Source: an uncultured Ectothiorhodospiraceae bacterium (GTDB lineage Bacteria; Pseudomonadota; Gammaproteobacteria; UBA9214). Taken from it: a stretch of DNA of 64,000 nucleotides. The stretch is from NCBI GenBank assembly GCA_947259415.1, contig CAMYMI010000001.1, positions 33,842 through 97,841 on the forward strand, given 5' to 3'. Under the pieces are notes generated by a model. That model did no database searches, was not told the DNA's origin, and saw only the letters and a program-made list of their open reading frames with translations. The translations under genes were made by a program, and so were the position numbers. This document shows positions 2,216-50,860 of this stretch, in pieces. How positions within the stretch are numbered: position 1 is the first letter of the stretch; the number at the start of each line of letters is the position of its first letter.

Positions 2216-2230
2216 CTGACAGGAAGCAAG

Positions 2231-3766: not shown

Positions 3767-3881
3767 AGAGGCGCCTGATAACGGCATCGAAGCGTGTGTT
3801 GTGCACACGGACCAGCGTAGCGCTGTGCAGTTCGCAGGCCGCTCATACTGAACGTTATGTGACACGGCGCTCCAAGCTATT

Positions 3882-12730: not shown

Positions 12731-12757
12731 GGGCCACGCCTAGCCGTGGCCTTTTTT
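12731..12757 (+). terminator. Intrinsic-terminator-like hairpin + U-tract (GGGCCACG-CCTAGC-CGTGGCC-TTTTTT) downstream of glgA and 5 nt upstream of ppc ATG
   Basis: Perfect 7-bp GC-rich stem followed by T6, read directly. Confidence 0.5.
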
Positions 12758-12761
12758 GTAC

Positions 12762-28491: not shown

Positions 28492-28647
28492 TTAACGCTG
28501 TTTGAATGTCGGATCAGTCTCCGCCATGTGGTGCACAATCTTGAAGAGGACGTAATTGAGCCCCTTCAGCTTCCTGCTTGCCTCGGCCATCTCGGCCTCT
28601 ATCTTTTCAACCTGTTGCGGCGTTGCCTCATGCGGACTCGTCAGCAT
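28492..28647 (-). CDS. Small hypothetical protein (51 aa from second Met)
   Basis: MLTSPHEATPQQVEKIEAEMAEASRKLKGLNYVLFKIVHHMAETDPTFKQR; overlaps antiporter 3' end by ~20 nt; weak. Confidence 0.25.
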   Translation of the reverse strand: MLTSPHEATPQQVEKIEAEMAEASRKLKGLNYVLFKIVHHMAETDPTFKQR

Positions 28648-32900: not shown

Positions 32901-33662
32901 TTACTGCTTCAACCGATACCCGGTCTTGAACATCCACCACACGACAAGCAGACAAGCGGCCAGGAACATCAGAACCATGGACAGGCTCAACCCCACGCTC
33001 ACGTCGGAGACTTCGAAAAAGCTCCAGCGAAAACCGCTGATCAGGTAAACCACCGGGTTGAACAGAGTTACGGTCTGCCAGGCGGGTGGCAGCATGCTGA
33101 CCGAGTAAAAGCTGCCGCCGAGAAACACCAGCGGCGTGATAACCAACAGCGGGATGAGCTGCAGTTTTTCAAAATTATCAGCCCATAGCCCGATGATGAA
33201 TCCGAACAGGCTGAAAGAAATACATGTCAGTACAAGGAATCCCATCATCCACACTGGATGAGCAACCTCCAGGGGTACAAAGAAGCCGGCTGTCGCCAGG
33301 ATGATCAGACCGATGAGCAGGGACTTGGTCGCTGCAGCTCCCACGTAGCCCAGCAGGATTTCAAAAAAAGATACCGGTGCTGACATAACTTCGTAAATCG
33401 TGCCTGTGAACTTGGGAAAGTAAATACCAAACGAGGCGTTGGAAATGCTCTGGGTCAGCAGCGCCAGCATCATCAGCCCGGGCACGATGAATGATCCGTA
33501 GGACACACCTTCAATCTGTTCAATACGTGAGCCGATAGCCGAGCCGAACACTACAAAGTAGAGCGATGTGGACAGTACCGGTGAGGCGAAACTCTGCAGC
33601 AGGGTTTCCCAGGCACGTAGCATTTCATACTTGTAGATCACTCTGACGGCGTATGTGTTCAT
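32901..33662 (-). CDS. ABC-2 type transporter permease (YadH-like)
   Basis: 253 aa, 6 TM, ABC-2 family pattern. Confidence 0.75.
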
Positions 33663-34585
33663 TACTTGGATTTCACCAGATTGACAAATATTTCTTCCAG
33701 AGAACTTTGCGTAGTTCTCAGGTCTTTTAGCACCATACCGGCCTCCCTGATCGCCTGCAGCAAGCCGCTGATGCCGGTGTGTGTATTGTGGGGATCATAG
33801 GTATAGGTCAGCCGGCTGCCATCAGCCGACAGATCCAGAGACCAGTGGGCCAACGCATCGGGCACGGAATCCACGGCCTGTTCTAGCTCAGCGATAAGTT
33901 GCCTTTTCCCGAGTTTATGCATTAATGCCAGCTTGTCATCTACCAGCAGCAGTTCACCGTCGTTGATGACGCCCACACGGTCAGCAATCGCCTCGGCCTC
34001 TTCGATATAGTGAGTGGTCAGGATGATGGTGACACCGGACTCGCGCAGGCGCCGCACCAGCGCCCACATGTCCTTGCGTAATTCAACATCCACGCCCGCC
34101 GTGGGTTCGTCCAGGAACAGGACTGAAGGCTCGTGCGACAGGGCCTTGCCGATCAGCACCCGCCGTTTCATACCACCCGACAGTGTCATCAGCTCGCTGT
34201 CTTTCTTACCCCACAGCGAGAGATCCCTGAGCAACCGCTCGAGGTGCTCAGGGTTGGGTTTTTTACCGAACAGGCCGCGGCTGAAACACAGCGTGTTCCA
34301 CACCGTATCGAATGCGCCGAGTGTGAGTTCCTGCGGAACCAGTCCGATCATGCTGCGCGTGGCGCGGTAGTCTGTGACGATGTCATGTCCTCCCACCGTT
34401 ACTGAGCCCGAACTTGCCTTTACAATCCCGCAGATAATCGATATGAGGGTTGTCTTGCCGGCCCCGTTGGGACCAAGCAACGCCAGGATTTCACCGGGCG
34501 CGATATCCAGGGTCACATCCTTGAGGGCATGGTGGCCGCCGGCATAAGTCTTGGACAGGTTCGATATGGAGACTATGGACTGCAT
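33662..34585 (-). CDS. ABC transporter ATP-binding protein (YadG-like)
   Basis: Walker [10 protein letters not shown], signature LSGGMKRR, Walker B LFLDEPT; start at [12 protein letters not shown]. Confidence 0.8.
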
Positions 34586-35109
34586 TTTTGTATTCACATG
34601 CACCCGCGCTTGACAGTTATATTGTGTCAATTATGCAGAGAAGGTGTGAAACCGTTCTTTATACAATCAACGTTATAGACACCGCCCGCCACCCTAGGCT
34701 TCATCCCATTGCGCACTCTTATAATCAATCCTTCCATGATATTTTAAGATATGCCGAGGGATTCTTTCGCCGCTCCAGTATCGGCATAATACTTTGCGCT
34801 CCAGCGAATCTTCTCGAGCATTGCCTGGGCTGAATCAAGGCCCTTATTCGTCAAACAGCACGTAACCGGATTATTCTGAATAACAAGAAAGTGGCCCGAA
34901 CCTGACATGACGGGTTATACCGGATATTACCAAAGTACAAACGTCTCAGAACAGCCAGAACCGGAAGTTTATGACGATAAAATAACGCTCCCGAAGATAC
35001 AGTCAGGCAAATTGCTAGAGAAGGATCATACAGGTAAATTAACGGCTGTGTACTTCTACAGACTGGATTGCCGCCTGCACAGACGGCAAAATGTAAAAAT
35101 CACAGGCTG

Positions 35110-36051
35110 CTACGCTGGCAAGAAGTCGATCGGGTAGGTAATGGTAATCTCTGTTACGTCCTTGGCGCCAAAGTCGAACAACTTGACGCGACTGGCGATC
35201 TTGGAACCCAGTGCAGGATCACCCAGTTCGCTGGAGACCAGGTCGCAGCGGGTAACCTTCCCGGAAGGGGCAATGGTCAGGCGCAACACGATCTTGCCTT
35301 TCAGGGTGGGATCCTTGCGCAGGGCGCGGTTGTAGACGCTATAGATCGAACCCTTGTTGCGATCGAAGACCATCTGAATCTCCTCGATGCTGCGGCCGGC
35401 CGACTTTGTGCCCTTGCCCTTGCCGCCCACCGAGCCACCCGGTGCATTGCCGGTCGGACTGCGGATCTTCGTGGAGCTGCGCCCGGACAATTCTCCCCCA
35501 CCGGTGTTGCGGCTCAGGTTCGAGGTCTGTATGCCACCGCTGCCACGCGCGGTGCCGGCCGTAAGGATCGCGCGCTCGGTCTTCTTCGCTGCACCCACGG
35601 ACTGCGACAGATTGTTGGTCTTGCTGAAACTAGTCGAGACCGTGTTTTGCCGCATGTCAGCCAGCGAATCCTTCAGTGCCAGCAGTCCGGACTTCTCGGC
35701 CTGTTGGCGCGCGCTGATTTTGGGCTTCACCGGCACCGGTTTCTTTACTACGACCTGCTTTTTCTTCACCGGCTTCGGAGTCTCAACCTTCTTCGGCAGC
35801 AGCTCCGGCTTTTTCTTCACCGGTTTTGGCGGTGGCGGCGGTTTAATCTCCTCTTTCTCGAAAATCAGCTGAGCGAGACGTGGCGGCTCGTCTATCACCG
35901 GTTTTTCGATCTCCGGCAACGGCAGGAGCGGAATAACGATACCCAGCACGAGCGCAATCAGCAGGTTGGTGCGCACAATGCGCTTGAAACGGGCATCGTC
36001 GGGGTTGGTGAAGCCCCAGGACATGTTGTAGCTCAGTACAGTAGCAGACAT
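35110..36051 (-). CDS. tonB: Energy transducer TonB
   Basis: N-terminal TM anchor, Pro/Lys-rich spacer (PPPPPKPVKKKPE..), C-terminal TonB_C domain (..GKIVLRLTIAPSGKVTRCDLV..). Confidence 0.75.
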   Translation of the reverse strand: MSATVLSYNMSWGFTNPDDARFKRIVRTNLLIALVLGIVIPLLPLPEIEKPVIDEPPRLAQLIFEKEEIKPPPPPKPVKKKPELLPKKVETPKPVKKKQVVVKKPVPVKPKISARQQAEKSGLLALKDSLADMRQNTVSTSFSKTNNLSQSVGAAKKTERAILTAGTARGSGGIQTSNLSRNTGGGELSGRSSTKIRSPTGNAPGGSVGGKGKGTKSAGRSIEEIQMVFDRNKGSIYSVYNRALRKDPTLKGKIVLRLTIAPSGKVTRCDLVSSELGDPALGSKIASRVKLFDFGAKDVTEITITYPIDFLPA

Positions 36052-36053
36052 GC

Positions 36054-36554
36054 TCAGCTTTCCAGTGGTTTCTGCAGTACGGCCAGCGAGATACGATTAA
36101 AGCCGGCCTGTGTGCAGGAGGCCATGACCTTTTTCAGGAGGCGAAACGGAATGTCCTTGTCACCCATGATAGTCGCCTCGCGACGTTCGGCTGGGTCACC
36201 ACCGACACTCAGCGTATTACCGGCCTGTTTGATGAGCGCGGCCTGCAACACCTTCGAATAGTTACCCTGCTCTTTCATGACGTTTGCCACAGAGGCGATC
36301 ACCTGACCATGCATCAGTATATTATCCTCGTTGACCATGACGGTGACAGTCACGCGTGGCTGTTGCTCGGAAATGGACTCCGGCAGCTCAACAGACTTGT
36401 GTGTCGGCAGGATCTCTCCGTCCGAGGCATTAACCAGAAGGAAGAACACCAGGATGGTGAAGATGTCCATCAATGATACGAGATTCAGGGCCATACCACG
36501 CCCGTGACGCACGTGCTGGCGCTCCATTCGTTTGGCGCGTCTTGACATCTTCAT
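36054..36554 (-). CDS. exbD: Biopolymer transport protein ExbD/TolR (paralog 2)
   Basis: 166 aa, single TM ..LNLVSLMDIFTILVFFLL.., ExbD periplasmic domain. Confidence 0.8.
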   Translation of the reverse strand: MKMSRRAKRMERQHVRHGRGMALNLVSLMDIFTILVFFLLVNASDGEILPTHKSVELPESISEQQPRVTVTVMVNEDNILMHGQVIASVANVMKEQGNYSKVLQAALIKQAGNTLSVGGDPAERREATIMGDKDIPFRLLKKVMASCTQAGFNRISLAVLQKPLES

Positions 36555-37069
36555 TTGGTGGCCACCTTCATGCGTGTACCCGGTGCATCACCGATGGAGA
36601 TCTCCGGGAACAGTTCGGCACTGACCACGCTGCCGGCCTGCACCACACGCGCGCTACGTACGCTGTCCATGGTCTGTACTACGGTTTCATAGTCGGTATC
36701 GGGTTCCAGCAGCAACGTAGCATCCAGCTTGTCAGGGAAGCGTGCCTTGATCTGCTGCAGCAATTGTGAGAGTTGTTGATAGTCATGGGCACCATCTTTC
36801 AATGGCAGCCGCTTAACGAGTCCACCATTCCGGTCACCCACTTCAATCCCATCATCACGCACGATGACCTCCAGGTGGAATTCCTGTGGCTTGTTAGCCA
36901 GCGCATTGCTGGCGGCGGCCGGCAGGTTCAGTTCCAGGATGGTAATGCGCGAAAATACTGCCGTAATCAGCAGGAACGGCACCAGAATCACCATAAGGTT
37001 CATGAACGCGGTGATATTTATATCACCTGAGTCCTGTGAACGTCGGCGGCGATTGAAGCGATTTCTCAT
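36551..37069 (-). CDS. exbD: Biopolymer transport protein ExbD/TolR (paralog 1)
   Basis: 172 aa, ..INITAFMNLMVILVPFLLIT..; 4-nt overlap with the downstream exbD. Confidence 0.8.
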   Translation of the reverse strand: MRNRFNRRRRSQDSGDINITAFMNLMVILVPFLLITAVFSRITILELNLPAAASNALANKPQEFHLEVIVRDDGIEVGDRNGGLVKRLPLKDGAHDYQQLSQLLQQIKARFPDKLDATLLLEPDTDYETVVQTMDSVRSARVVQAGSVVSAELFPEISIGDAPGTRMKVATK

Positions 37070-37716
37070 CAGGCCTTACCTTCGAGCGGTCTCTCGGTAA
37101 TGCTGTTGAGAAACTTTACCGAGGCCATCTCCAGGCTGTCGATCAGCTGCGTGGTCTTAGTCTGCAACACGGCATAGATCAGCAGCAGCGGAATAGCGAC
37201 CATCAGGCCAAATGCTGTGGTGTTCATGGCTACCGATATACTGGCGGATAACATATCGGCCTTCTCGGTAGGATTGGCCGACGCCACCGCTGTGAATGCC
37301 TTGATCAGGCCGATAATCGTGCCTAGCAGTCCGAGTAGCGTGGCTATGTTGGCAAAGGTAGCCAGGTAGGCGGTGCGCTTCTCGAGATTCGGTACGGTCT
37401 CCATCAGCCCTTCTTCCATTGCGATCTCGACATCGTCACGGCGGCGCGAAGTCTTGGCACGGTTCAGACCGTAGCTGAAGATGTGGCTGATGGCCGAACG
37501 GGACTTTTCAGTGAGCATGGCCACTCGCAGGTAATCGCCCTTGGCGAGGTGCGGGGCCATTTTTTTCCACAGTCGGTTGTTGCTACTGCTGGCCGCGCTG
37601 AGATAGATGTAGCGTTCTACAGCAATGGCCAGGCCCAGTGCGAGCACCAGCACAATCGGGTACATGAAAAAGCCACCCGACTGAAAGAACCCGACGAATG
37701 TGTTGTAATAATCCAT
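37069..37716 (-). CDS. exbB: MotA/TolQ/ExbB proton-channel protein
   Basis: 215 aa, 3 TM, ..LATFANIATLLGLLGTIIGLIKAF.. ExbB signature. Confidence 0.8.
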   Translation of the reverse strand: MDYYNTFVGFFQSGGFFMYPIVLVLALGLAIAVERYIYLSAASSSNNRLWKKMAPHLAKGDYLRVAMLTEKSRSAISHIFSYGLNRAKTSRRRDDVEIAMEEGLMETVPNLEKRTAYLATFANIATLLGLLGTIIGLIKAFTAVASANPTEKADMLSASISVAMNTTAFGLMVAIPLLLIYAVLQTKTTQLIDSLEMASVKFLNSITERPLEGKA

Positions 37717-37828
37717 AACAATACTCCTGTTGCTTCCCCAGTAATTAACGATTCATTGCGCAATGGCGCAGATTATCCCTGCCCATCGGCATGGCCCGGC
37801 ATGAGTTTAATAACCTTATATTTACTAC

Positions 37829-38137
37829 TCATTTAGTACTGTGAACTGCTTCGTAGTATTCAAGCTCCCTGAGAAATACGTCACGGTCTATAGGTGCAAG
37901 GATCTCATCGACGAGACTGTTCATGGGGCGCGCGGCCAGTTCGCCAGCCTCGGCAGGTTTCCACGGTACGATATGCAGGGCCTTGGGCAGTTCCTGGTTA
38001 CCGGTGATGGTGGTGCCCTCAAGATCCACTCTGTCTGCGGCTTGTGCACAGGTGGCCAGCCAGAACACTCCGAGCAGACATGCGACAACCTGCAGATACG
38101 ATCCGCTCCGGCAGATACAGATATTCAGGTGTCTCAT
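37829..38137 (-). CDS. Small secreted protein (102 aa)
   Basis: Signal peptide ..VACLLGVFWLATCAQA; 4-nt overlap with the upstream TPR lipoprotein gene. Confidence 0.4.
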   Translation of the reverse strand: MRHLNICICRSGSYLQVVACLLGVFWLATCAQAADRVDLEGTTITGNQELPKALHIVPWKPAEAGELAARPMNSLVDEILAPIDRDVFLRELEYYEAVHSTK

Positions 38138-38760
38138 CGATTTGCTCCGGTGGCGACGTTGTTCTGGCTGATCTGTTCACGCAATTCACTGATCCACGAA
38201 AGCAGTTGTCTGTCTTGCGACTGCGTCAACTGCTGGTAATTCTGGTAGTGGGTCAGGGCCTGTGCCGGGTTTGCCAGGTAACGATCGTTGAGGATGCCGA
38301 GGTTCCAGTGGATGCGCTCATCATTCGGATTAATTTTGAGTCCCTGGTTGTACATTGAGGCGGCTTCTTCCAGCCGGCCGCTGCGGCGATACAGGATGCC
38401 CAACTCGTTGTATGCCACGATCTGTCTGTCATTTACATCGATTGCCTTTATAAAGGCTGCCTCGGCACCGACCATATCTCCTATCTTGTTGCGTGCAATG
38501 CCGAGATTCGTCCACGGGCCGGACAGCCGTGGGTTTGCTGCGGTGATTGCGGCAAGCTTGTCTGTGGCAAGGTGCCAGTCCTCGGCCTTCATCAATTCCA
38601 GGGCGACCTGGAATTCGCCCTCAATGTCTGTGACTGTTGCCGTTTCCACTACCGTGGCACCGGAGGCAGGCACCATGGCGTGTTCCTGCGGTGCACTGGC
38701 GCAACCAGCAAGCATGATTACGACAGTAAATATCAGTACATTAACGTAGCGCAGTGGCAT
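38134..38760 (-). CDS. TPR-repeat lipoprotein (208 aa)
   Basis: Lipobox VIMLAGCAS after ATG 38760; TPR repeats (..AAFIKAIDVNDRQIVAYNELGILYRRSGRLEEAASMYNQGLKINP..). Confidence 0.55.
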   Translation of the reverse strand: MPLRYVNVLIFTVVIMLAGCASAPQEHAMVPASGATVVETATVTDIEGEFQVALELMKAEDWHLATDKLAAITAANPRLSGPWTNLGIARNKIGDMVGAEAAFIKAIDVNDRQIVAYNELGILYRRSGRLEEAASMYNQGLKINPNDERIHWNLGILNDRYLANPAQALTHYQNYQQLTQSQDRQLLSWISELREQISQNNVATGANR

Positions 38761-41539
38761 AGTCTGTGCTCCTTTCCAGCTTGGCGAATTTGCCCGGCAC
38801 CAGTTGAGCCAGTGCCTTGAGGCTTTTCTCGATCCAGGCGTCGTACAGACCTGACTCGATACGCACGGCATTGGTCTCGTGCAGCGCGATGGCCTGTTCT
38901 TCGAACGGGTATGCCAGATCTTCCAGCAGGATGTTGTATTCCTCTAGTGCCTCGGTGTTGAGATTGCTCGGACGCTCGGATTCCATCAGTGCCTCGGCAA
39001 GATGGGTGTAGAGTTGTGCGGTGTGGTAGGCGGCGGCTGTAGTGATTTCGGCCACGTTGTAGGCGGCAGCCTGCTCATACTGCGCCAGGGTCGATTCCAG
39101 CAGTTGCTTCTTGGTGGCGAGTGTCTTGTCCAGTGGCAGCTTCAATGCGATCGCACTGTACTGAGCATTTTGTGCACCAGCCAGAACCAGTCGCGCCTGT
39201 GCAGCAAGGTAACGCGTACGATCGGTGCGACCACGACCAGCCTGTGCATCGGCCATGATGATGGAATTCAGCCATTGGTGCCACTGCAGGCTGTCACCAG
39301 ACGATTTATAGTACAGTGCGATGCGATGACGTGCCTCGATGGCATCTTCCACCGGCTGCGGGAACTGCTCGACATAATAGACATATACTGCTGTCGATTG
39401 TGCAGTGTGCCCGGCATTTGTATACATCTCGGCAGCCTGCCACAGAGCATCACTGCGCATCTTCACATCGCCGCTTGTGCGCCCGATGCGTTCGAATTCC
39501 TGTGCGGCCAGCAACGGTCGGGCGCTGCCGAGATAGGCCGTAGCAAGCCGGCGTGTGACCTCCGCCTGGCGGGGATCATCCGGATAAGCATCACGGAATT
39601 GTTCCAGTGTTCTGGCAGCGGCGGAAAAGTCATTTAGACTCATCAGACCGGCAGCGGCATCGTATTCCGCGGTGGCGACGATACCTGCGGTCGGTGCGGC
39701 ATTGCGCACACGCTGGAAGTGGCCCACAGCGACTCGGGTGTCACCGGCGGCCTGCGCAGCCTCTCCCTGTTTGTAGATGCAAGCTGCAAGTCTCTCGGTA
39801 TAAACGGAATTATTCTTGCTGTTTGATGCTGTACGGGCGAGCACCTGCTGGTAGGCCTGTTCGGCATGCAGGAAGTCCTCGAGATCGAAATAGGCATGCG
39901 CCTGGACCGTCCAGCTCACGCGTTGCTGTACGTCCGTGGCCGCCTTGTTATCGATGACCAACTGTGCAACCTGAATGGCACGCGGGTTCTCGTTGATCGC
40001 CAGTAACTGTTCCGCAGAGCGTGTCAATACTGCCAGTGACTGCGGATGTCGCGGGAAACTTGCAGCAAAGCGTAGTGCATTTTCAATGGAGCCGCGATGC
40101 CAGGCTGCTTTTTCAGTCCCGGACAGATGCGCCTCTTCCTTGTCGAAGGCAAGCACGGAGGCATAACCAGCCTCGGCGGCCTTGTCATGCTGGCCGTAGT
40201 CATAGGCAGTATGCACGAACTCCACACCTGCTTCACGGTACTTGCCTGATTCGTCGAGAAGTTCAGCCAGCAGGAAGTTCATATCCGGTGCGGCCGGGTC
40301 ATCCGAAAACGAGCCCAGCCAGGTGCGATACCAGTGTGTGGCCTCGGCGTAGTCTTGCGGCTTGCGGGTTAACTGTGCCTGTGCGTGATAGTGGCGCGAC
40401 AGGTCGGTCATGGTTACCTTAAGGAAGCCGAGCACCTGGCCTGCATCAGCCTTGTCGTGATGTTTCCAGTATTCGCCCAGTAGATTATAGCGGTCAACAA
40501 ATGCCTTCTTGCCTTTCAGCACCAGCGTGGGGAAATTGCCGGCCTGGTAGGCATCGATCACCCGCATCTGAAAGGCCGGTGCCTGGCGGTGGATCGGGTT
40601 GCTGGCTACGAATGACTGAAAGGTCTCGGCAGCATCAGTATAACGCTCCTTGTCGAGGTACAGCTTGCCGAGGCGGTCGTACACCAGGTCTTCATAGTTG
40701 CGCGGGCCGTGCTGAGCAAATAAGCCAGCCACTGTGCGCGCACCATCTTCATAGGAAAAACTCAGGCTCATCACACGCAGGGTGTCATCCACCATTTCAC
40801 GTTCTGCTCTTCCCAGCCCTGCCAGCAGCTCGTCGCTATCCGTGTTCTGCGGGAGCTTGCTGTCAAGCAATCCAGTGAAGGTATCGAGTCCCGCGCTGAA
40901 CAGCCCCTGTTTGAAGTAGCACCAGCCCAGCTTGTAGAGCGACTGCTGAAAAAACGGGTTGTCACCGCCGGAATCGACGACGGCCTTGTAGGCGTTCTCG
41001 GCTCCGTGGTAGTCCTTCTTCACGAACAGGATTTCACCTCGCCGGAACTGTGCCTCGAGCCGACGATGGCTTTCCGGGTATTGCGCTACCAGTTGCTCCA
41101 GTGCAACCAGTGACTTGTCCGGTTCACCCCCGAGTTCATAGGCGCGTGCCAGCTGGTAAAGCACGAAATCATTGTCGGAGCGCCCCGGATAGGTTTCCAG
41201 CACCTGCTGGTAGAGATATATCGAATCCTGAACCTGCTGCGGATAGTCAGATACCAGCGCAGACCTGTCAGGTTCAGATTCCGGCAGAGCTTCGGCTTCC
41301 AGGTTGATGTCTGCTAGCCGGCGCATGGCCAGCGGACGTGCGTCGGTCTGATCATCGGTTTCCAGGAAGCGGCGATAGGCGTTCATGGCCTGCTGTTCAC
41401 TGGACTCGATTGGCACATCATCCAGTTTGTTCGGGTGCCTGCTGAGATCACCAATGGTCGCTACATTATCACCACGAAACATCGAGCAACCGCTGCTGGC
41501 TAGTACGGCCGTCAAAAGGAGTACCAGCCAGCGTATCAC
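38741..41539 (-). CDS. Large TPR-repeat lipoprotein (932 aa)
   Basis: Lipobox LASSGCS; TPR-like helical repeats throughout (..YKLGWCYFKQGLFSAG.., ..ALWQAAEMYTNAGH..). Confidence 0.6.
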   Translation of the reverse strand: MIRWLVLLLTAVLASSGCSMFRGDNVATIGDLSRHPNKLDDVPIESSEQQAMNAYRRFLETDDQTDARPLAMRRLADINLEAEALPESEPDRSALVSDYPQQVQDSIYLYQQVLETYPGRSDNDFVLYQLARAYELGGEPDKSLVALEQLVAQYPESHRRLEAQFRRGEILFVKKDYHGAENAYKAVVDSGGDNPFFQQSLYKLGWCYFKQGLFSAGLDTFTGLLDSKLPQNTDSDELLAGLGRAEREMVDDTLRVMSLSFSYEDGARTVAGLFAQHGPRNYEDLVYDRLGKLYLDKERYTDAAETFQSFVASNPIHRQAPAFQMRVIDAYQAGNFPTLVLKGKKAFVDRYNLLGEYWKHHDKADAGQVLGFLKVTMTDLSRHYHAQAQLTRKPQDYAEATHWYRTWLGSFSDDPAAPDMNFLLAELLDESGKYREAGVEFVHTAYDYGQHDKAAEAGYASVLAFDKEEAHLSGTEKAAWHRGSIENALRFAASFPRHPQSLAVLTRSAEQLLAINENPRAIQVAQLVIDNKAATDVQQRVSWTVQAHAYFDLEDFLHAEQAYQQVLARTASNSKNNSVYTERLAACIYKQGEAAQAAGDTRVAVGHFQRVRNAAPTAGIVATAEYDAAAGLMSLNDFSAAARTLEQFRDAYPDDPRQAEVTRRLATAYLGSARPLLAAQEFERIGRTSGDVKMRSDALWQAAEMYTNAGHTAQSTAVYVYYVEQFPQPVEDAIEARHRIALYYKSSGDSLQWHQWLNSIIMADAQAGRGRTDRTRYLAAQARLVLAGAQNAQYSAIALKLPLDKTLATKKQLLESTLAQYEQAAAYNVAEITTAAAYHTAQLYTHLAEALMESERPSNLNTEALEEYNILLEDLAYPFEEQAIALHETNAVRIESGLYDAWIEKSLKALAQLVPGKFAKLERSTDYATALR

Positions 41540-43404
41540 TGAACACCGTCCTTACCGGGATACAGGGCACTGTCAAGGGTTTGCGCCAACGAAAAACGCG
41601 CCTGCACGATGTAGGAATCAAGGCGTTTCTTCTGCTGTTCGAGTTCATTCATGGCCAGCTGCTCAATGAGCTCACCCTGCACCAGATAGACCAATTCGGT
41701 GCGTTCCAGCAGCGCCTTTATGAGCATCCGGTTAGTATCGATGCGCTGGTTGAACGCATCGAAACCTGACGGTGTGGTGATACGGGCCGAGTTGAGTGAT
41801 TGCAGTACCCGCGTGGACTCGTCCAGCAGGTCGGCCACTTGTGACAGCTGACGCTTTACCTGCCACAGGCGAGGCTTGTACTGGCTGCTGAGTTGCCAGT
41901 ATAGCGCTCCCTCCACACGCGCCTGGCGTTCACGCAGTGTATCTGTATCAGGATTCACTGGAAGTCCAGACAGCTTTACTTTTATATCCTCGAGTTTATT
42001 CCACTGTTCAGCTTCTGAGGTATCCGCCAGTCCGACCGGATCGTTGGCACCCTCGACCTGAGCCAGACGCACCCTGAGTTGGCGATGACGCTGCTCTATA
42101 GTTTCGCGGTCTTCGGATCGCAGCGCGCGTTCGGCCGCGGGTTGCTTGTCTGCAAAGCGATGCTCGCGCGCGGATAGCATATCGTCATAGGCATCGATAT
42201 TGGTGGCCCAGGTCTGCAGGTTGTTACGCAGGATCGACAGGTCACGGTAGTTCTTGACTGCTTCCTGAAATTCATGTGTTGCCATCAGCGCAACCTGGTA
42301 GCGCAGTGCCGGTGACTGGCTGTCCATTGTCAGCTCCTGTAGCCAGCCGGAACCGGTACGCGGGTCCTGTCCCTGCAGTGTCTCCAGCAACTCGCCATTT
42401 CTGATTGCATCAATCGACTCGTTGAGCTTGTCCTTTTCGTCAAACAGCGTGTCAATAACATCATTGTATTGCTGCACTGCCCGGCCATGCAGATTCATCC
42501 TGGTCATGGCATACGGCACCGCCAATAATGCTTCCTGTACGGCCGGATCGGTGGCATTACGCCTGCCGAGCTCACTCCATGGCACCAGTGCATGGCCGAA
42601 TTCATCCGCTTCCGCATTCGCCCAGCCAGCACCAAGCAATGCCTTGTTGGAGAGTGGTCCCTCGAGTCGGACACGCTCGAGTATTTCGCGTGATTGCTGC
42701 GCAGCTCCACCCTGAAGATAGCTGTAACCGAGTGCCAGGTTTGCCTTGTCGCGCAGCAGCCTTAATTCCTCACTGCGACCGGAGAGTTCACCCAGGGTAT
42801 CCAGTTCCTTCGCGCCGCGTTCCAGTTGACCATTGCGAATATAGGCGACACCCAGGTTATAAGCGAGATATGGAGACCAGACATTATTGTCTTTTGACGC
42901 CTCCAGAACCTCGATGGCCGCATCATTCTGGCCGAGCTGCAGCAACAGCAGGCTGTGCAGCTGTGAAACCTCGACGCGCGTGGTGCGCGTCATGTCGCCG
43001 CTGACCCGAGACAGTGCCTGCAGCGCGTTGACAGTGTCGCCGCGCTGATATGAGATCTTGGCAAGATAGAACCAGGCACGGTTGCGGATCTGTTCGTCGG
43101 CGTGCTCGTTTGTCAGCAGGCGTTCGAAAATCGTGCTGGCCAAGTTACGCAGCCCATAGGACAAGTCAAGTCCGCCCAGCAGTAACTCAGCCTCATCGGC
43201 ATGATTGGGCAGCCGCTCCTGTGTCTTTGCGATTTGCAGACGAACAATGCTGTTGAACCAGTCATCCTGATAATAGTAATAAAGCACTTCCCCGTACTGG
43301 AGGTCCTGCGCCGTTGAGGGTGATATGCGGTCAGCTGCGGTTGCTTGCATCATCAGCAGCGTTAGCGACAACAGCAGAATGAATCTGCGGGCAACGCACT
43401 GCAT
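41536..43404 (-). CDS. Secreted TPR + coiled-coil protein (622 aa)
   Basis: Signal peptide LLMMQATAADR; N-terminal TPRs (..AWFYLAKISYQRGD.., ..YNLGVAYIRNGQLERG..) then long coiled-coil C-terminal half. Confidence 0.55.
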   Translation of the reverse strand: MQCVARRFILLLSLTLLMMQATAADRISPSTAQDLQYGEVLYYYYQDDWFNSIVRLQIAKTQERLPNHADEAELLLGGLDLSYGLRNLASTIFERLLTNEHADEQIRNRAWFYLAKISYQRGDTVNALQALSRVSGDMTRTTRVEVSQLHSLLLLQLGQNDAAIEVLEASKDNNVWSPYLAYNLGVAYIRNGQLERGAKELDTLGELSGRSEELRLLRDKANLALGYSYLQGGAAQQSREILERVRLEGPLSNKALLGAGWANAEADEFGHALVPWSELGRRNATDPAVQEALLAVPYAMTRMNLHGRAVQQYNDVIDTLFDEKDKLNESIDAIRNGELLETLQGQDPRTGSGWLQELTMDSQSPALRYQVALMATHEFQEAVKNYRDLSILRNNLQTWATNIDAYDDMLSAREHRFADKQPAAERALRSEDRETIEQRHRQLRVRLAQVEGANDPVGLADTSEAEQWNKLEDIKVKLSGLPVNPDTDTLRERQARVEGALYWQLSSQYKPRLWQVKRQLSQVADLLDESTRVLQSLNSARITTPSGFDAFNQRIDTNRMLIKALLERTELVYLVQGELIEQLAMNELEQQKKRLDSYIVQARFSLAQTLDSALYPGKDGVQ

Positions 43405-43407
43405 TGC

Positions 43408-43953
43408 TTATTCCCATTCCCTGATACTGAAGTCCGGTTGTTCACTGCTCGGGTTATCCACGATTTTTAGTTCAACATACTTCGCACCGAGGCTCTTGTT
43501 GATGACCAGACTGGCGCCACGGCGGTAATCACGCCCTTTCGGGCCCACCCCCGTATAGATGGCGACAATCTCGTGCTCACCGGCCTTGAGGTTACCCATG
43601 TAGAGGCGTTGAATGCCGCCCCGATGCAAGGCATCGACCTCGCGCTGGGTGTATAGGTAATTGGAAACAGCCTTGCCATCCACCTTGAGCTGCACTGAAT
43701 CGAGCTTGAAAAACTCGCCTACATCGAGTGACACAAACACGGCCAGCTGCGTGTTGGCCGGGTATAGCAGCTCTTCCTCGAGTATGAACAGATCGCGGTT
43801 GAGTGCAATTACGTCCTGTTTAAGCAACTGGATGCTCTCGTCCAGGCTGACCGTGGCGGACGATTCTGCCTGAGCAACACTGAACACCAGCATCATGAAT
43901 ATGCCGACAAGTAGTATTTTGACAGAACAATTAGGAAGAATTGAATTCAACAT
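43408..43953 (-). CDS. Secreted protein of unknown function (181 aa)
   Basis: Signal peptide MLNSILPNCSVKILLVGIFMMLVFSVAQA; first gene of the TPR/TonB gene string. Confidence 0.45.
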   Translation of the reverse strand: MLNSILPNCSVKILLVGIFMMLVFSVAQAESSATVSLDESIQLLKQDVIALNRDLFILEEELLYPANTQLAVFVSLDVGEFFKLDSVQLKVDGKAVSNYLYTQREVDALHRGGIQRLYMGNLKAGEHEIVAIYTGVGPKGRDYRRGASLVINKSLGAKYVELKIVDNPSSEQPDFSIREWE

Positions 43954-44239
43954 CTTGGACCTCTGTGTTTCAGCGCCGGACAATCTGCCTATCTGTAAAT
44001 ATGTCGGTCCGCACAGCAAAAGATTGACTAAATTTCAGGAGTAAATTGACTACCAGATAGTCTTATGCAGGTGGTATCTGCAAAGTGTGCGCTGGTTCAC
44101 AATCCGGCTGTCACAGGAAGCCATGCCTCCCCTGCATTACGTGGCTAATCTGATGACCGGAGAAACGAAGCTATTAGTGGACAGGGATACCCACTTTGAT
44201 CTAGCGCAGGCCAGTTCTTACAGGTATTAAATCAGAAGT

Positions 44240-45220
44240 CTATTGTGTGACCCGGGCCAGTCCTTCCGAATAGTGCATCCTGCCACGGTTGTCGATGATG
44301 ATTGCCTCGGTATCCGGAAGCGAATTAACCAGCTTCAAGCCCTTGTCCACGCCCATGACGAATACGCTGGTGGAAAGTGCATCGGTATCAGTAGCATTGT
44401 TGCCAATGATACTGGCGCTGTGGATCTCGCGCGACGAATCCCCGGTCCCCGGATTGAGGATGTGGTGGTAACGCACACCGTCTTCCTCAAAATAGCGTTC
44501 ATAGTCACCGGAAGTGGAAATGGCAGCATCTTCCAGCGGGATCGTGGAGACGAGACCGTCGCGGTTGCGTGGATCACGGATGCCAACCTTCCAGGGATGA
44601 TCCCAGTGCCTGCCGATCACCCGTGTGTCTCCACCGGCACTGACCAGCGCATTTCTGACACCGGCGGCCTGCAGAATTGCAATGCTGCGGTCGACAGCAT
44701 AGCCCTTTGCAATACCACCGAGATCGATACGCACGTCAGGTTGCAGAAACTCTATGGTCGACTGCACTGTATCCAGCCTGACATGGTGATAGCTGATTGC
44801 CGGCAATACATCGGCGAGCTGTTTACCGTCCGGTTTCCTGCCCTTGCGGTAATCGTAATATTGCCCGGCACTGGCATAGGTGACATCGAAGGCACCATGC
44901 GTGATATCGGAAAACATCAACGCCTGCCCGATCAGCATCAGCAGCTCATTGTCGACCGTGATCGGGCCCCTCGCTGCATTGCCATTGACGCTCGACAACT
45001 CGCTGTCGGGTTTGTAGGTGCTCATCAGATCGTCGATACGGCGCATTTCATCCATGACCGCCTCGATCAATACCCTGCCCTGCTTCACGTCGCCATGCCA
45101 CAGCTCCACATTGATGGCTGTGCCCATAATGGCGGCCTCCTCGTGCAGCCAGTCGGCGCTCGCCAAGGAAGGTATCAACAACACAGGGAGGAGAGACGTG
45201 AGAATTATTAGTGGCTTCAT
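44240..45220 (-). CDS. apbE: FAD:protein FMN transferase (flavin transferase ApbE), exported
   Basis: Signal peptide; ..IDLGGIAKGYAVD.., ..ALVSAGGD.., ..TSGDYERY.. ApbE motifs; 71 nt downstream of the DUF1501-like gene on the same strand. Confidence 0.85.
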   Translation of the reverse strand: MKPLIILTSLLPVLLIPSLASADWLHEEAAIMGTAINVELWHGDVKQGRVLIEAVMDEMRRIDDLMSTYKPDSELSSVNGNAARGPITVDNELLMLIGQALMFSDITHGAFDVTYASAGQYYDYRKGRKPDGKQLADVLPAISYHHVRLDTVQSTIEFLQPDVRIDLGGIAKGYAVDRSIAILQAAGVRNALVSAGGDTRVIGRHWDHPWKVGIRDPRNRDGLVSTIPLEDAAISTSGDYERYFEEDGVRYHHILNPGTGDSSREIHSASIIGNNATDTDALSTSVFVMGVDKGLKLVNSLPDTEAIIIDNRGRMHYSEGLARVTQ

Positions 45221-45291
45221 GGCGGGACTTATCGGCCAGCGCCTGATTACATTTAATGCTGCAGCCCGAATGAAGCAAAGACAGTAACCGC

Positions 45292-46884
45292 CTAGACCAC
45301 CCCGTTCACAATGGCATTGAACGCGGTCAGGCTGTCCATCATCGAGGCATTGCCGAGGCCATGACCGGGAAACAGATTTGGGAAATTGGCTGCCTCTCCA
45401 TGCAGGGCCATATAGTTGAGGATGACCGTCTCGACCAGCAGGTTGACCTGGTTGGCTGCGGGAGTTGCGGTGGTTTCAACCGATGCGTCCGGGCGCATCC
45501 AGCCGATCTGCTGGTGCATTGCCTGTTCTGCAGCGCCCAAACCAAGCAATGTCGGGCGTCCTCCGGGGTTGTAGACCAGGAAGAACGAGGCTGCGGTAGA
45601 CGAGTTATCACCGGTCCAGACACCCTTGCCGCCAGCCGCACCGTCGGTCATGCCGTTACTGAATACCGAGCCGTCACTGCAGACGTAGATCATCAGAGGT
45701 ACGCCGGCACCATTGTTGGCGCGTGCGGCATATTCCAGGCAGGCACCGATACAGCGTCCGGCGCGCAGGTCGCGAAGTTCGCCTGTAATACGGTCACCGG
45801 TGTGGTAGTCATAGCCGCCCATGGTGATGGTACCGGCGCCGGAAAAGCCGTTAATCACCATCTTCATAACTGAGGCGGTCTTTCGAAATTCGTTGTCGCT
45901 GTCGAACTCTGCCTGGCTGAAGATACCTGCCGGGCCGACGATGTCCGGATCAAGCGCGGGGTTTAGTGTAGATGGATCGCCAAAGCGATCGGCGATATCA
46001 GCCGCCTTGACGTAGCCGCAGCGCACCAGGTCCTTGATGACGGCATCGGCAGTAAGCTTGGTGTCGACCTTGTCGAGTTTCATCTTGCTGATACGCTCGA
46101 TGGATTCCATGACTGCAACCGCGTCATCCTGGGTCAGCGCGCCGATCAGCTGACCGGTATCGACCATGCCGGTGACATCCGAGGGGCGATCCACCTTGGT
46201 CGGGCGGATACTCGGATCTATCATCATGGTTGGCGCCATGGAGTTGCCACCGGAATCTGAACTGCGCGAACCAATCAGGGTCAGCAGACTGCCGTCAGCG
46301 CCGGCCCTGGCAATGCCATACATTGGGTTATGCGGATTGTTGCCGGTATCGTTGTCAGAGCGTGCAGGAATGATTGCGCCATTGATCAATGCACTGCGCC
46401 CCTGCGCCTTTTCGCCGATACCCTGCAACATGGCACTGGTGGAATGAAAGGCTAGCCCGAAGTCAGTATTGATGAAACTGGTGCCGGTATTCGGATCAAT
46501 AGAGGCCGGCGTCATGTCACCCGGAAGACCCAGCTTGCTGTAACCGGCGGTGCTCAAAAAATCCAGCTGACCACCCTGCTGTCCTACCAGTACGTTGGAG
46601 CCGGAAATATTAGCGCCACCGGCCAGATCGAAACAGATAAACGGGATCTTGCCGGCACCAAGCGATTTGATACCACAGGACGTTTTTAACGCTTCGATAT
46701 CGGGAGACAGTGCAGCGGCAGCCGAGCGCGGGTTGGCAAACAGCCCGAACAGCGAGGGCGCAGTCACCAGTCCGACGCCGGCAATCAGACCTTGCCCTAT
46801 AAAATCACGGCGCGTCAGCGGTCGGCCGTGGTCATTCAGACACAGCGGCTCGTCCGGTAAGCGTATATTGCGTTTTCGCGTCAT
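45292..46884 (-). CDS. Tat-exported protein, DUF1501-like (sulfatase/alkaline-phosphatase-like fold, tentative)
   Basis: Twin-arginine signal LTRRDFIGQGLIAGVGLVTAPSLFG; ..IPFICFDLAGGANISGS.. and ..MGGYDYHTGDR.. resemble the DUF1501 conserved blocks (GGxD, GGxDxH); start taken at MTRKRNIRL. Confidence 0.55.
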   Translation of the reverse strand: MTRKRNIRLPDEPLCLNDHGRPLTRRDFIGQGLIAGVGLVTAPSLFGLFANPRSAAAALSPDIEALKTSCGIKSLGAGKIPFICFDLAGGANISGSNVLVGQQGGQLDFLSTAGYSKLGLPGDMTPASIDPNTGTSFINTDFGLAFHSTSAMLQGIGEKAQGRSALINGAIIPARSDNDTGNNPHNPMYGIARAGADGSLLTLIGSRSSDSGGNSMAPTMMIDPSIRPTKVDRPSDVTGMVDTGQLIGALTQDDAVAVMESIERISKMKLDKVDTKLTADAVIKDLVRCGYVKAADIADRFGDPSTLNPALDPDIVGPAGIFSQAEFDSDNEFRKTASVMKMVINGFSGAGTITMGGYDYHTGDRITGELRDLRAGRCIGACLEYAARANNGAGVPLMIYVCSDGSVFSNGMTDGAAGGKGVWTGDNSSTAASFFLVYNPGGRPTLLGLGAAEQAMHQQIGWMRPDASVETTATPAANQVNLLVETVILNYMALHGEAANFPNLFPGHGLGNASMMDSLTAFNAIVNGVV

Positions 46885-46906
46885 GAGATTAACCTCGTTT
46901 TGGTTC

Positions 46907-49435
46907 CTACTGCAGCAGCATCGCAGCACTGCCCAGTATTGCTGCGCAACTTGCCTTGACTATTTCCTCTGTACGCGCGGGTGTCGCACACGTCGGTGAT
47001 GATCCTGTTGCGCAGCCGGTCAGGATCAGGATGAGATCATCAATCTCACTGGTCACGTTTGCCGGATCAGGCTGCACTGTCAGTCCCGTATTCATCACCC
47101 TGTCGATCAACGGTACGATCATCAGGTCACGCTTGGTCGGTGTATCAAATGCGGTATCGGCACTTTCTGGCGGTAAACCGCTGGTGAAGAACCCGGGGAA
47201 ATAGCTCTCACGTGAGATCGTGCCATTGTTATCGACCAGTGCACTGCAGTATTCAATCGCCATCTGCGAGATCGCCATCTGATGTGCAGACAGGAAGCCC
47301 TCGATATTCTCTACAGTCGGCAACTGCTGCATGACCGTCTGGTACACCGTCTTGACATCGACCTGCCCGGTACTCACGCCGGTGATCGCTGCCAGCGTGG
47401 CATTGATCTCGTGAAAGTTGCGCAGGCCGATATCGGATGCCTCCGGCAGATCGGGTGGTGGTGCCGGTGCAATGGGTGCGGGCTCTACCACGACATTGTT
47501 AGCATTGCCGAATACTTCGAATGTCAGGAAGAACTGATCGGCACTAGATCCCTTCTCGAGCGCGATAACAGTACCTAAATCCGAGAGTGTCTGGCCAACA
47601 CTGGGCGTGTAAAGTGCGCTGCTGATCGTGGTGTTGAGATGCTTGTAGGCCTGGCCTACAGTCGCTTCCTTGCCGTTTATTCCGATACGCATGCCGGCGA
47701 CCGGGATGCCGTCCGGTGCTGCGTTCGGATCAAGACTGATGAAGCGCGGATTATTGAACAGGTAACTGTAGCTGTCGAACTGGCTTACCTCAAACAGAAC
47801 ATAGCTGTCGGTAATGCCGCTGTGATCGTCGACGTTGAACAGCAGGTAGAATTTCTCGCCAACGCCGACCGAAAAGTTCTGGGTGATCTGTTCCTGGGTC
47901 AATGCACGGTTGTGAATAGCCACCATGCGCAGCATGCCCTGCCACTGGCGGTCGCCTGAAACCTCGTTTCCCAGCACGAAGGCAAAGCTATTATCCCAGT
48001 CAATCAGGGTTCCTCCCTGGACCAGATCGACATCGTCGGTGAACACGCCATTGACGAAGATGCGACGACCGTTGACCGGGTCGTAGGTGGCAACCACATG
48101 CTGCAGCGTCGCCTGGAGGTCTTCATCGGCATCGGCCGTATCCAGCGACGGATCGCCATTGGCGTCCGTCGTCGTGCTGCGGTTCATAACGTTGTAGCTA
48201 TACAGGGTCTGCCCGAGCGTGAAGTTACGCTCTGTTGTACCGGCGGAATAGCTTATGATGCGCGCCGGTCCCTGTTGCGACACATTGGCCGGAGCGACCC
48301 AGGCCTCAATAGTGTATTCACCGGTGGCAGTAATAAGGTTATACAGTTTCTGACTGCTGGTGGTAGTTGCCTGGGCCTTGCCGCTGGTGACATTAATTCC
48401 CCAGCCGCCGACCCAGTCGACGCCACCGCTCAGGGTGAGGTGCATGTCCGGCGCTACGCCACTGGTATCAAATGCGATATTACCCGAGCCGGTCTTGAAC
48501 TGGTACATGGCAATGACGTTGTTATCGTAGCGATTGCCACCACTGGCAACGATACCGTCGGGCAGGGTCAATGCCTTGCTTGTTACCAGGTTCGGATCGA
48601 TTGTGGTCACACTGATCGAGCTGGCATATGCCGTAATTGCATTTTCCATTGCAATCGCAGACGCAGCGCAGTCGGAACTGCCACTATTGTTCGGGTCCCA
48701 GCAATTGTGGAATTCATCGCGCAGTCGCACCACGAACCGAGAATTGTCCGGTGCATCCAGATCGATCTTCGGCTTTGCCGCCTCATAGGCGGAGTCCGGG
48801 TCACTGTTGGCAAAGAACGGTGACTGTGCGTCGGTGGATGAGTCTGTATGACAGCCTGCACAATTTGCGGTAAGTACAGGATGCACTGTCGCTGCAAAAC
48901 CGGATGAGTCGGCCGGAAACGATTTGCTGTCGCCCGGATCCTTCAGTGGTGGCGCGGTCAGCGGGATAACCGTGCCGGAACCTGCCAGACCACCGGCCCA
49001 GGCAGTGATATAGGCGGTAATCACGTCGGCACAGGCCTGATCACTGGCCAGCCAGCAGTTATGCCCGGCAGCCACCTTGGTGGCCATGAGAGAATTAGCC
49101 GGCGTAATCATGTCCACTATGGCGTTGGCATCAGCATACGCCAGATTGATATCGTCATCGCGCACGAAGGTCGGGGCCTGGCCAGCGGTGGCGTGACAGT
49201 TACCGCAACGATTACTCGGACTGAGGTTATCCCAGACGTTCAGCTTGAAGGCCTGCACATCCGTAGTCGCCGGTGGCGGCCCGCTGTAATTCGAGGTCGA
49301 CGCTACCGCGGCGGTATTCGGGATTTGGGAGGTACTCTCCCCGCCACCACAGGCCGTCAAACCGGCAGCTATGCCAACGATGACCGCCTGCACAAGGATG
49401 TTATCAAGCAACCTGGGAAGAATTGGGTATTTCAT
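46907..49435 (-). CDS. Lipoprotein with two c-type haem motifs (CGNCH, CAGCH), LamG/ConA-like jelly-roll domain and C-terminal domain (PSCyt-like architecture)
   Basis: Lipobox AAGLTACGG; CxxCH at ~aa 77 and ~aa 192; ..EAWVAPANVSQQGPARIISY..WQGMLRMVAIHNRALTQEQI.. typical Laminin_G_3; 842 aa. Confidence 0.6.
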   Translation of the reverse strand: MKYPILPRLLDNILVQAVIVGIAAGLTACGGGESTSQIPNTAAVASTSNYSGPPPATTDVQAFKLNVWDNLSPSNRCGNCHATAGQAPTFVRDDDINLAYADANAIVDMITPANSLMATKVAAGHNCWLASDQACADVITAYITAWAGGLAGSGTVIPLTAPPLKDPGDSKSFPADSSGFAATVHPVLTANCAGCHTDSSTDAQSPFFANSDPDSAYEAAKPKIDLDAPDNSRFVVRLRDEFHNCWDPNNSGSSDCAASAIAMENAITAYASSISVTTIDPNLVTSKALTLPDGIVASGGNRYDNNVIAMYQFKTGSGNIAFDTSGVAPDMHLTLSGGVDWVGGWGINVTSGKAQATTTSSQKLYNLITATGEYTIEAWVAPANVSQQGPARIISYSAGTTERNFTLGQTLYSYNVMNRSTTTDANGDPSLDTADADEDLQATLQHVVATYDPVNGRRIFVNGVFTDDVDLVQGGTLIDWDNSFAFVLGNEVSGDRQWQGMLRMVAIHNRALTQEQITQNFSVGVGEKFYLLFNVDDHSGITDSYVLFEVSQFDSYSYLFNNPRFISLDPNAAPDGIPVAGMRIGINGKEATVGQAYKHLNTTISSALYTPSVGQTLSDLGTVIALEKGSSADQFFLTFEVFGNANNVVVEPAPIAPAPPPDLPEASDIGLRNFHEINATLAAITGVSTGQVDVKTVYQTVMQQLPTVENIEGFLSAHQMAISQMAIEYCSALVDNNGTISRESYFPGFFTSGLPPESADTAFDTPTKRDLMIVPLIDRVMNTGLTVQPDPANVTSEIDDLILILTGCATGSSPTCATPARTEEIVKASCAAILGSAAMLLQ

Positions 49436-49438
49436 GCC

Positions 49439-50632: not shown

Positions 50633-50795
50633 GCGCTCTATCCCGGCTTGTTATGGTTTCAGGACCTGTCTTCGGCCCGTGCAGGCAGATACTGATGCGA
50701 TAAGCGTTTTTTTTCTATGACGTGGTTCGCGGAATGGGTCTCCGCACCAACCTATAGTTGAGCTGCGAGCAACGGGGATCGATTAGTGTGCACCA

Positions 50796-50813
50796 GGTCA
50801 CAGTTATGTGACC
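50796..50813. promoter_or_regulatory. Perfect palindrome GGTCACA-GTTA-TGTGACC in the divergent promoter region
   Basis: 7-bp inverted repeat with 4-bp spacer, ~48 nt upstream of the 892-aa gene ATG and ~165 nt upstream of the 397-aa gene start. Confidence 0.3.
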
Positions 50814-50860
50814 CGTACCGTCCCACGTATCAGGTTTACCGCCCGGAGGGCCGATCAGCT

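Follow-up and report, generated by a model that had tools for sequence, protein, structure and literature searches.

With reference to the literature, seven 'Group B' genes (gltC, gltD, gltE, gltG, aglR, aglQ and aglS) were described by Luciano et al. 2011 (PMC3169522; PLoS Genet 7:e1002268) and termed the 'core complex', a set whose function was called unknown at that time and again in a 2020 preprint from the same group. The core genes were stated to be insufficient for motility, most of their carriers not being known gliders, and the defining group views the core complex as the ancestor of the gliding and spore-coat machines of Myxococcus, where the core genes are split over three loci; the core clusters contain one additional gene without a Myxococcales homologue (PMC3169522). 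No later functional study of the gammaproteobacterial core was found by locus tag or gene name, in a search that left most subscription journals outside. In this study, a string of nine genes (g1 to g9) at positions 35110-43953 of a 64,000-nucleotide (nt) window, the whole stretch of uncultured Ectothiorhodospiraceae DNA that was analysed, was investigated. The string lies on the minus strand, with g1 transcribed first and g9 last. By its sequence features, the cluster is likely to be a core complex of the Agl-Glt type that stands alone, and as such a trans-envelope machine, Tol/Ton-like and driven by protons, and we hold this with good confidence because the order and sizes of the genes match those of published clusters and because of the GltG-domain result for g9, evidence that we grade as strong. 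The architecture was already published in 2011, and this locus adds detail only. The features of the string are as follows.

g1, 43408-43953, minus strand: 181 amino acids (aa; longest open reading frame (ORF) 203), ordinary signal peptide, long helix plus beta-sandwich
g2, 41536-43404, minus strand: 622 aa, ordinary signal peptide, N-terminal tetratricopeptide repeats (TPR) plus charged helical C-terminal half, GltC position
g3, 38741-41539, minus strand: 932 aa, TPR lipoprotein, GltD (AgmU) position
g4, 38134-38760, minus strand: 208 aa from the signal-peptide Met (longest ORF 245), TPR lipoprotein, GltE position
g5, 37829-38137, minus strand: 102 aa, small and secreted, ordinary signal peptide, extra-gene position
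g6, 37069-37716, minus strand: 215 aa, MotA/TolQ/ExbB family, AglR position
g7, 36551-37069, minus strand: 172 aa, ExbD/TolR family, AglQ position
g8, 36054-36554, minus strand: 166 aa, ExbD/TolR family, AglS position
g9, 35110-36051, minus strand: 313 aa, TonB/TolA-like transducer, GltG position
Non-coding stretch between apbE and g1, 43954-44239, minus strand: 286 nt, presumed promoter region

Comparatively, the closest agreement was observed with the gammaproteobacterial core clusters in Table S3 of PMC3169522, two of which are set beside the window cluster below, with protein sizes in aa.

Thioalkalivibrio Tgr7_0536-0543: GltG 535, AglS 170, AglQ 168, AglR 222, skipped tag, GltE 190, GltD 922, GltC 620
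Marinobacter Maqu_1807-1814: GltG 324, AglS 166, AglQ 170, AglR 235, skipped tag, GltE 189, GltD 952, GltC 648
Window, g9 to g2: 313, 166, 172, 215, 102, 208, 932, 622

The gene order, the strand arrangement, the near-identical sizes, the three TPR proteins (about 200, 930 and 620 aa) and the small extra gene are all held in common; the window differs in that g7 carries Asn in place of the membrane Asp. Clusters of like pattern in the same table are Maqu_1595-1602, Cellvibrio CJA_3313-3319, Saccharophagus Sde_2954-2961 and those of Shewanella frigidimarina (Sfri), Teredinibacter (TERTU) and Hahella (HCH). The gammaproteobacterial GltG homologues there are mostly 321-334 aa long, and the position of g5 corresponds to the skipped locus tags between the gltE and aglR homologues. 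For the TPR proteins g4, g3 and g2, which were compared with GltE, GltD and GltC by description only, content, order and sizes agree with Table S3: g4 falls within the range of the GltE homologues of gammaproteobacterial core clusters (162-263 aa), g3 within that of the gammaproteobacterial GltD homologues (922-1016 aa), and g2 agrees in size and position with the homologues of MXAN_2541 (GltC; 550-692 aa). The cluster displays these features of the core complex: one TolQ/ExbB-like gene followed by two distinct TolR/ExbD-like genes, adjacent and overlapping, a GltG-type transducer with a Pro-rich linker and a TonB-like C-terminal domain (g9), and a single genomic region with one additional gene (g5).

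The NCBIfam scan proved decisive for the assignment. In g9, the C-terminal residues 222-313 (about 90) pass the NCBIfam model NF033768 of the AgmX/PglI C-terminal domain at 69.4 bits against a cut-off of 40, and align with the C-terminus of the Myxococcus gliding protein GltG (model positions 557-643, E 4e-11) and with that of GltJ (E 5e-8). The TonB C-terminal model TIGR01352 reached 26.1 bits (E 8e-6), under its cut-off of 27.1; no Pfam family, TonB_C (PF03544) included, was matched at E<=0.01, and no PDB sequence, TonB chains included, at E<=1. The layout of the protein comprises a 27-residue cytoplasmic N-terminus, one membrane helix without His, a Pro/Lys-rich stretch at residues 48-110 (16 Pro and 16 Lys in 63 residues), a Ser/Gly/Thr-rich stretch at 111-221 and the C-terminal domain at 222-313; FHA domains are lacking. 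By the curated thresholds, g9 would thus be a GltG-type single-pass transducer and not TonB.

The nine genes are real and form one conserved gene string, and are not chance ORFs, because each of them has hundreds to thousands of homologues in database searches and because those detected are colinear in all the loci compared. The loci scored, by tblastn of all nine window proteins, were the best 80 of at least 589 g3-relative matches in species-representative genomes, with g3 identities of 41-59%; they come from Steroidobacteraceae, Woeseiaceae, Thiogranum, Thiohalobacter, Acidiferrobacterales and Chromatiales metagenome-assembled genomes (MAGs), and the g3 of the source lineage is at most 59% identical to its closest relative among them. 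The detected cluster genes were colinear on a single strand in 80/80 loci of other species. The full nine-gene set was present in 66 of them, a contig end truncating 12 of the 14 incomplete loci, and, of the 68 loci long enough to show it, 67 have the motor next to the five scaffold and small genes. By gene, g2 and g3 were found in 80/80 loci each, g4 in 77/80 and g5 in 76/80. The highest median identity was recorded for g6 (66%), with g1 at 61% and g5 at 57%, and the TPR proteins are the least conserved of the cluster (32-44%). In the databases, g3 has more than 4,000 homologues, nearly all of about 930 aa and from uncultured Gammaproteobacteria; no g3 relative was detected on plasmids by tblastn. 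In locus L047 (13400-20430, a Chromatiaceae MAG), g1 to g5 are present and a ribonucleotide reductase lies downstream in place of the motor and GltG-like genes; therefore scaffold module and motor can exist apart, as they do in Myxococcus, provided that this contig is correctly assembled.

An earlier reading made from the letters and ORF translations of this DNA (hereafter the sequence-only reading) had proposed nine consecutive minus-strand genes with 0-100-nt gaps or 4-nt overlaps, and the ORF listing with translations bears out all nine genes, consecutive and tightly packed, with the gap between g5 and g6 slightly over its range. From the downstream end, the junctions are a 2-nt gap (g9/g8), a 4-nt overlap (g8/g7), a 1-nt overlap (g7/g6), a 112-nt gap (g6/g5), a 4-nt overlap (g5/g4), an overlap of about 20 nt (g4/g3), a 4-nt overlap (g3/g2) and a 3-nt gap (g2/g1). 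That reading expected the TPR genes to be syntenic with the motor across genomes, as they proved to be, and no internal promoter or terminator to split them from it; in agreement, a consensus scan gave no promoter or terminator signal above shuffled expectation inside the cluster. The 112-nt gap folds no better than its shuffles (z -0.34), and an Rfam scan came back empty. The sole sizeable gap at the head of the string is the 286-nt stretch upstream of g1, where the promoter consensus scan stayed at or below shuffled expectation and no Rfam family was found. It was also right that g3 and g4 are lipoproteins and g1, g2 and g5 secreted proteins, as seen from their lipoboxes and ordinary signal peptides respectively, and its count of four secreted TPR/coiled-coil proteins comes down to three, since g2, g3 and g4 contain TPR and g1 is a helix with a beta-sandwich. 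Pfam recognized MotA_ExbB in g6, ExbD in g7 and g8, and TPR families in g2, g3 and g4, and no family in g1, g5 or g9.

For the motor protein g6, which has three hydrophobic segments by hydropathy, PF01618 scored 102 bits; among NCBIfam models, TolQ (70.7 bits, cut-off 221) exceeded the two ExbB models (46.8 and 45.7 bits, cut-offs 206 and 135), and TolQ and ExbB sequences in the PDB matched about equally (E ~1e-8). PF02472 scored 57.7 bits on g7, with one N-terminal hydrophobic segment, and 59.8 bits on g8, with one hydrophobic segment; their best NCBIfam match was TolR at about 31-32 bits, far under its cut-off of 127, and the ExbD models gave at most 30 bits against cut-offs of 123-216. Because all equivalog scores for TolQ, TolR, ExbB and ExbD fall far under their cut-offs and PDB TolQ and ExbB sequences fit g6 equally, the motor, as judged by its sequence, is not a canonical set of either the Tol or the Exb kind. 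PDB searches with the cluster proteins gave no sequence relatives of the AglR, GltG or GltD type. A membrane aspartate (Asp) is typical of TolR, ExbD and MotB, and serves as the proton carrier in TolR and ExbD. In g8 it is kept as Asp30, with Asp at the aligned site in 68/68 loci, and in g7 the site is Asn24 in the window and, among the 68 loci, Asp in 46 and Asn in 22. Since the Asp of g8 is invariant while g7 carries Asn in the window and in 22 of 68 loci, one protonatable subunit per g7/g8 heterodimer seems to suffice. On the opposite strand (35068-36261, plus strand), a 397-aa ORF antisense to g9 and g8 recurs in 11 loci; the simplest explanation is that it mirrors the conserved genes opposite to it and is no gene itself.

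With regard to the TPR proteins, g2 showed TPR matches at residues 89-213 (Pfam). Several TPR families were found in g3, among which the YbgF/CpoB-type repeats passed their model through several repeats, at 117.6 bits against a cut-off of 90.1, with 932 aa in g3 compared to the 263 model positions of CpoB; its homologues bear the JGI name 'TolA-binding protein'. The lipobox Cys18 of g3 is nearly invariant in close homologues, and only 15 of 77 distant ones have a lipobox-like motif, these distant homologues otherwise resembling ordinary secreted proteins. The LAGC lipobox of g4 is a textbook one, and of 58 homologues 52 show a lipobox-like motif; the protein matches TPR_1 among other TPR models, and the NCBIfam GltE model gave a weak match (E 2e-8, 33.6 bits against a cut-off of 225). 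The NCBIfam output for the cluster proteins contained neither a GltD nor a GltC model. Presumably g3 is the central periplasmic scaffold.

The two small secreted proteins, g1 and g5, were among the better conserved parts of the cluster. The AlphaFold model of g1 (pLDDT, or predicted local distance difference test score, 79) shows a long helix at about residues 35-63 and then a beta-sandwich of 8 strands, Ig/transthyretin-like, for which a fold search returned generic beta-sandwiches only; no recognisable family was found for g1. Its homologues are labelled 'AraC family transcriptional regulator' in NCBI records, which is very probably a widely spread annotation error. It does not figure in the homologue table of 2011, whose entries are restricted to genes that have homologues in M. 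xanthus. The mature part of g5, about 68 aa, is very conserved (LEGTTITGNQELPKALHIVPWK...), with 34 invariant columns across 27 sequences, and its relatives make up 1,504 clusters at 50% identity (E<=1e-3); no Pfam or NCBIfam family matched it. Its conserved N-terminal stretch LEGTTITGN may loosely resemble a TonB box. The AlphaFold2 monomer of g5 is of low confidence (pLDDT 60.7), with just two short C-terminal helices in the mature part. Because the mature part is near-invariant yet the monomer model is of low confidence, g5 probably folds on its partner, and it may possibly be a GltF-like adaptor, by analogy with GltF of Myxococcus.

This analogy is drawn from the Myxococcus machine, in which the locus-tag order places gltF (MXAN_4868) between gltE (MXAN_4869) and gltG (MXAN_4867). 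In the AlphaFold model of Cambillau and Mignot 2025, an AglR pentamer surrounds an AglQ-AglS heterodimer and the membrane helix of GltG binds AglR, while the periplasmic part of GltG wraps the TPR pillar GltD, its TonB-like domain resting at the GltD N-terminal domain; GltE sits on the GltD C-terminal domain, GltC touches GltD via one helix, and GltF, for the most part disordered, contributes a beta-strand to the GltG domain and inserts a helix into GltC. With the Agl-Glt machine and its Agl-Nfs spore-coat paralogue, the window cluster shares the AgmX/PglI-family domain, a motor of one TolQ-like and two TolR-like proteins, and TPR proteins at the GltC, GltD and GltE positions; they also have in common a gene, close to that of the transducer, for a small periplasmic protein that is largely disordered (GltF there, and g5 here as judged by its model). 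The differences are that the window cluster lacks the outer-membrane barrels GltA, GltB, GltH and GltK, the CglB adhesin, GltI, GltJ and the FHA domains of the transducer, that the Myxococcus proteins are longer (GltD to at least residue 1197, GltG of about 640-650 residues), and that the core genes of Myxococcus stand at three loci compared to one string in the window.

Upon the gene content, order, conservation, domain families and topology observed in this analysis, we infer stoichiometry, contacts and output, taking as analogues TolQR, ExbBD and the Myxococcus machine as modelled with AlphaFold in the literature. In such a mechanism g6 would form the inner-membrane channel ring and the g7/g8 heterodimer its plug, with the protonatable Asp in g8 only in the source organism, and proton flow would be turned into conformational work in the single-pass g9, whose Pro/Lys-rich linker would cross the periplasm, so that the TonB-like C-terminal domain of g9 could dock on a TPR scaffold beneath the outer membrane, made up of the g3 lipoprotein as central pillar, g4 as its outer-membrane lipoprotein partner and the soluble g2 as a GltC-like arm. 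Probably g5 would fold on binding and bridge g9 to the scaffold, in the way GltF is modelled. The output would not be TonB-dependent nutrient import; more likely, a component of the outer membrane or the surface is positioned, assembled or released at the expense of energy. This is favoured because no receptor was seen, because the link to the TPR platform is fixed and because of the family relationship. The Mignot group reads such clusters likewise, as a Ton/Tol-type motor acting on a TPR envelope scaffold and not as siderophore uptake. The sequence-only reading had reached the same proposal for a Ton motor, which is reasonable apart from the TonB label.

That label brings up the alternative of a genuine TonB-ExbB-ExbD system that energises receptors encoded elsewhere, with the TPR proteins as accessories in the manner of TtpD in Vibrio TonB2. 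TonB clusters are often unlinked to their receptors, the anatomy of g9 is TonB-like in its N-terminal membrane helix, its Pro/Lys spacer and its TIGR01352 match, and g6 to g8 belong to the ExbB and ExbD Pfam families, so that the call of one exbB and two exbD genes made in the sequence-only reading was sound for the families and fails at the ExbB and ExbD equivalog cut-offs. Its tonB call has to be given up, as Pfam TonB_C is unmatched, TIGR01352 stays under its cut-off and the AgmX/PglI model passes at 69 bits. In the same direction point the better score of g6 for TolQ than for ExbB, both far under their equivalog cut-offs, the His-free membrane helix of g9, the presence of two distinct ExbD-like genes and the constancy with which the motor stands beside the scaffold and small genes (67/68 loci). 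As that reading had also noted, there is no TonB-dependent receptor nearby: none was found among 29 window ORFs scanned (the nine cluster genes and 20 larger flanking ones), nor among the recurrent flanking gene clusters whose sequences were read. The systems to which it likened the locus are tonB-exbB-exbD1-exbD2 of Xanthomonas, with its duplicated exbD, and TonB2 of Vibrio (ttpB-ttpC-exbB2-exbD2-tonB2-ttpD), with the TPR protein TtpD. With Xanthomonas, a duplicated exbD alone would be shared. The Vibrio likeness does not survive beyond an associated TPR protein, for the window has a single 215-aa MotA/ExbB-family protein, no equivalent of the large second MotA/ExbB protein TtpC and, by Pfam on the nine proteins, no DUF3450 (TtpB) match; unlike in the TonB systems, the TPR genes come first and the transducer last, with no linked receptor. 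These two systems are therefore not the closest comparison, and the architecture published in 2011 had been missed. Taken together, a TonB system proper is quite unlikely.

A second, specialised Tol-Pal-like system, serving outer-membrane constriction, envelope integrity or lipoprotein positioning, overlaps mechanistically with the core-complex assignment and is unlikely as a separate explanation. The motor scores best for TolQ (g6, 70.7 bits) and TolR (g7 and g8), the transducer is a TolA/TonB-like single-pass protein, g3 passes the YbgF/CpoB model and has relatives named 'TolA-binding protein', and AglRQS has been described in the literature as TolQR-like and GltG/GltJ as TolA-like. The same TolQ and TolR scores lie far under the equivalog cut-offs, however, g3 is much longer than the CpoB model, as are the TPR proteins generally for a Tol-Pal system, and two different TolR-like subunits take the place of a homodimer; TolB and Pal were not found in the cluster, its immediate flanks or the recurrent flanking clusters read, and the family-specific g1, g2 and g5 are foreign to Tol-Pal. 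A gliding-motility machine like the Agl-Glt of Myxococcus, to which the motor, the GltG-like protein and the GltC/D/E-like layout would conform, is very improbable: gltA, B, F, H, I, J and K (Myxococcales/Bdellovibrionales additions) were undetected in the cluster or in the scanned ORFs of the 64-kb window, where the g9 C-terminal match to GltG/GltJ and the weak g4 match to GltE were the only gliding-family matches, g9 has none of the cytoplasmic domains through which GltG/GltJ are coupled to the cytoplasmic platform, and the original authors, as mentioned, hold the core genes insufficient for motility and most carriers not to be known gliders.

Several observations also weigh against the core-complex assignment itself. 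By order, size and domain class only, g2 and g3 are equated with GltC and GltD, and g6 to g8 with AglRQS, and the TPR matches are unspecific, the GltE match of g4 (33.6 against 225 bits) ranking under PilW and MamA. The near-threshold TonB C-terminal match of g9 (E 8e-6) makes a TonB-like role possible, the cytoplasmic FHA domains described for Myxococcus GltG are missing from g9, and in L047 the scaffold genes occur without adjoining motor genes. Nevertheless, membership of the Agl-Glt-type core complex is the reading that we prefer, and it can tentatively be extended. It is conceivable, but on balance doubtful, that the core complex has nine parts and not seven or eight, with g1 and g5 obligatory, g5 giving a TonB-box-like strand to the GltG-like domain and so closing the force path from the one-Asp plug to the TPR platform, and that the motor drives a surface assembly or secretion process ancestral to gliding and spore-coat assembly.

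Concerning the neighbourhood, the genes at 44240-53464 were found to encode, on the same strand as the cluster, a 397-aa protein with one CxxCH motif and a weak DUF1585 match, an 842-aa lipoprotein with two CxxCH motifs and LamG, a 545-aa protein that has a twin-arginine signal and matches no Pfam family, and ApbE, and, divergently, an 892-aa lipoprotein with two CxxCH motifs and a hydrazine-synthase-alpha-like domain. By sequence these look like a periplasmic redox module. The 842/545 pair occurs upstream of the cluster in 49/80 loci and ApbE in 22/80. The upstream cytochrome/LamG, twin-arginine-signal and ApbE genes were considered as parts of the system and set aside; they are probably a conserved chromosomal neighbourhood instead, because genes for phosphoenolpyruvate (PEP) carboxylase and a cation/proton antiporter recur nearby too. 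In about 25 Steroidobacteraceae loci (e.g. L004, L005) the latter two are found no more than about 10 kb downstream of the cluster; they are also in the window, farther away (12756-15593 and 28628-30475), and their presence in both therefore indicates long-range conservation of the chromosomal region. An ABC-2 type transporter (ATPase and permease) is encoded on the same strand at 32901-34630, some 480 nt downstream of g9; it was rejected as a part of the cluster, being syntenic in 1/80 loci. Again, positions 1-4000 of the window have a G+C content of about 0.49-0.51 compared to 0.55-0.66 elsewhere in the window, and may be a foreign or otherwise atypical segment.

The window locus leaves existing knowledge of the core-complex family unchanged. 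The cluster type is abundant, with at least 589 g3-relative stretches in species-representative genomes and thousands of metagenomic homologues, and an Agl-Glt-type core-complex label, in place of the present mixture of TonB/ExbBD, 'TolA-binding protein' and 'AraC regulator', prevents its misreading as an iron-uptake system. Tractable carriers are available in Marinobacter, Cellvibrio, Saccharophagus and Shewanella frigidimarina, and handles for experiments are provided by the conservation of g1 and g5, the replacement of Asp by Asn in g7 and the lineage-specific lipidation of the large scaffold g3. If the nine-part reading is true, the system would rank with the most widespread of the uncharacterised motors of Tol-like type that environmental Gammaproteobacteria possess.

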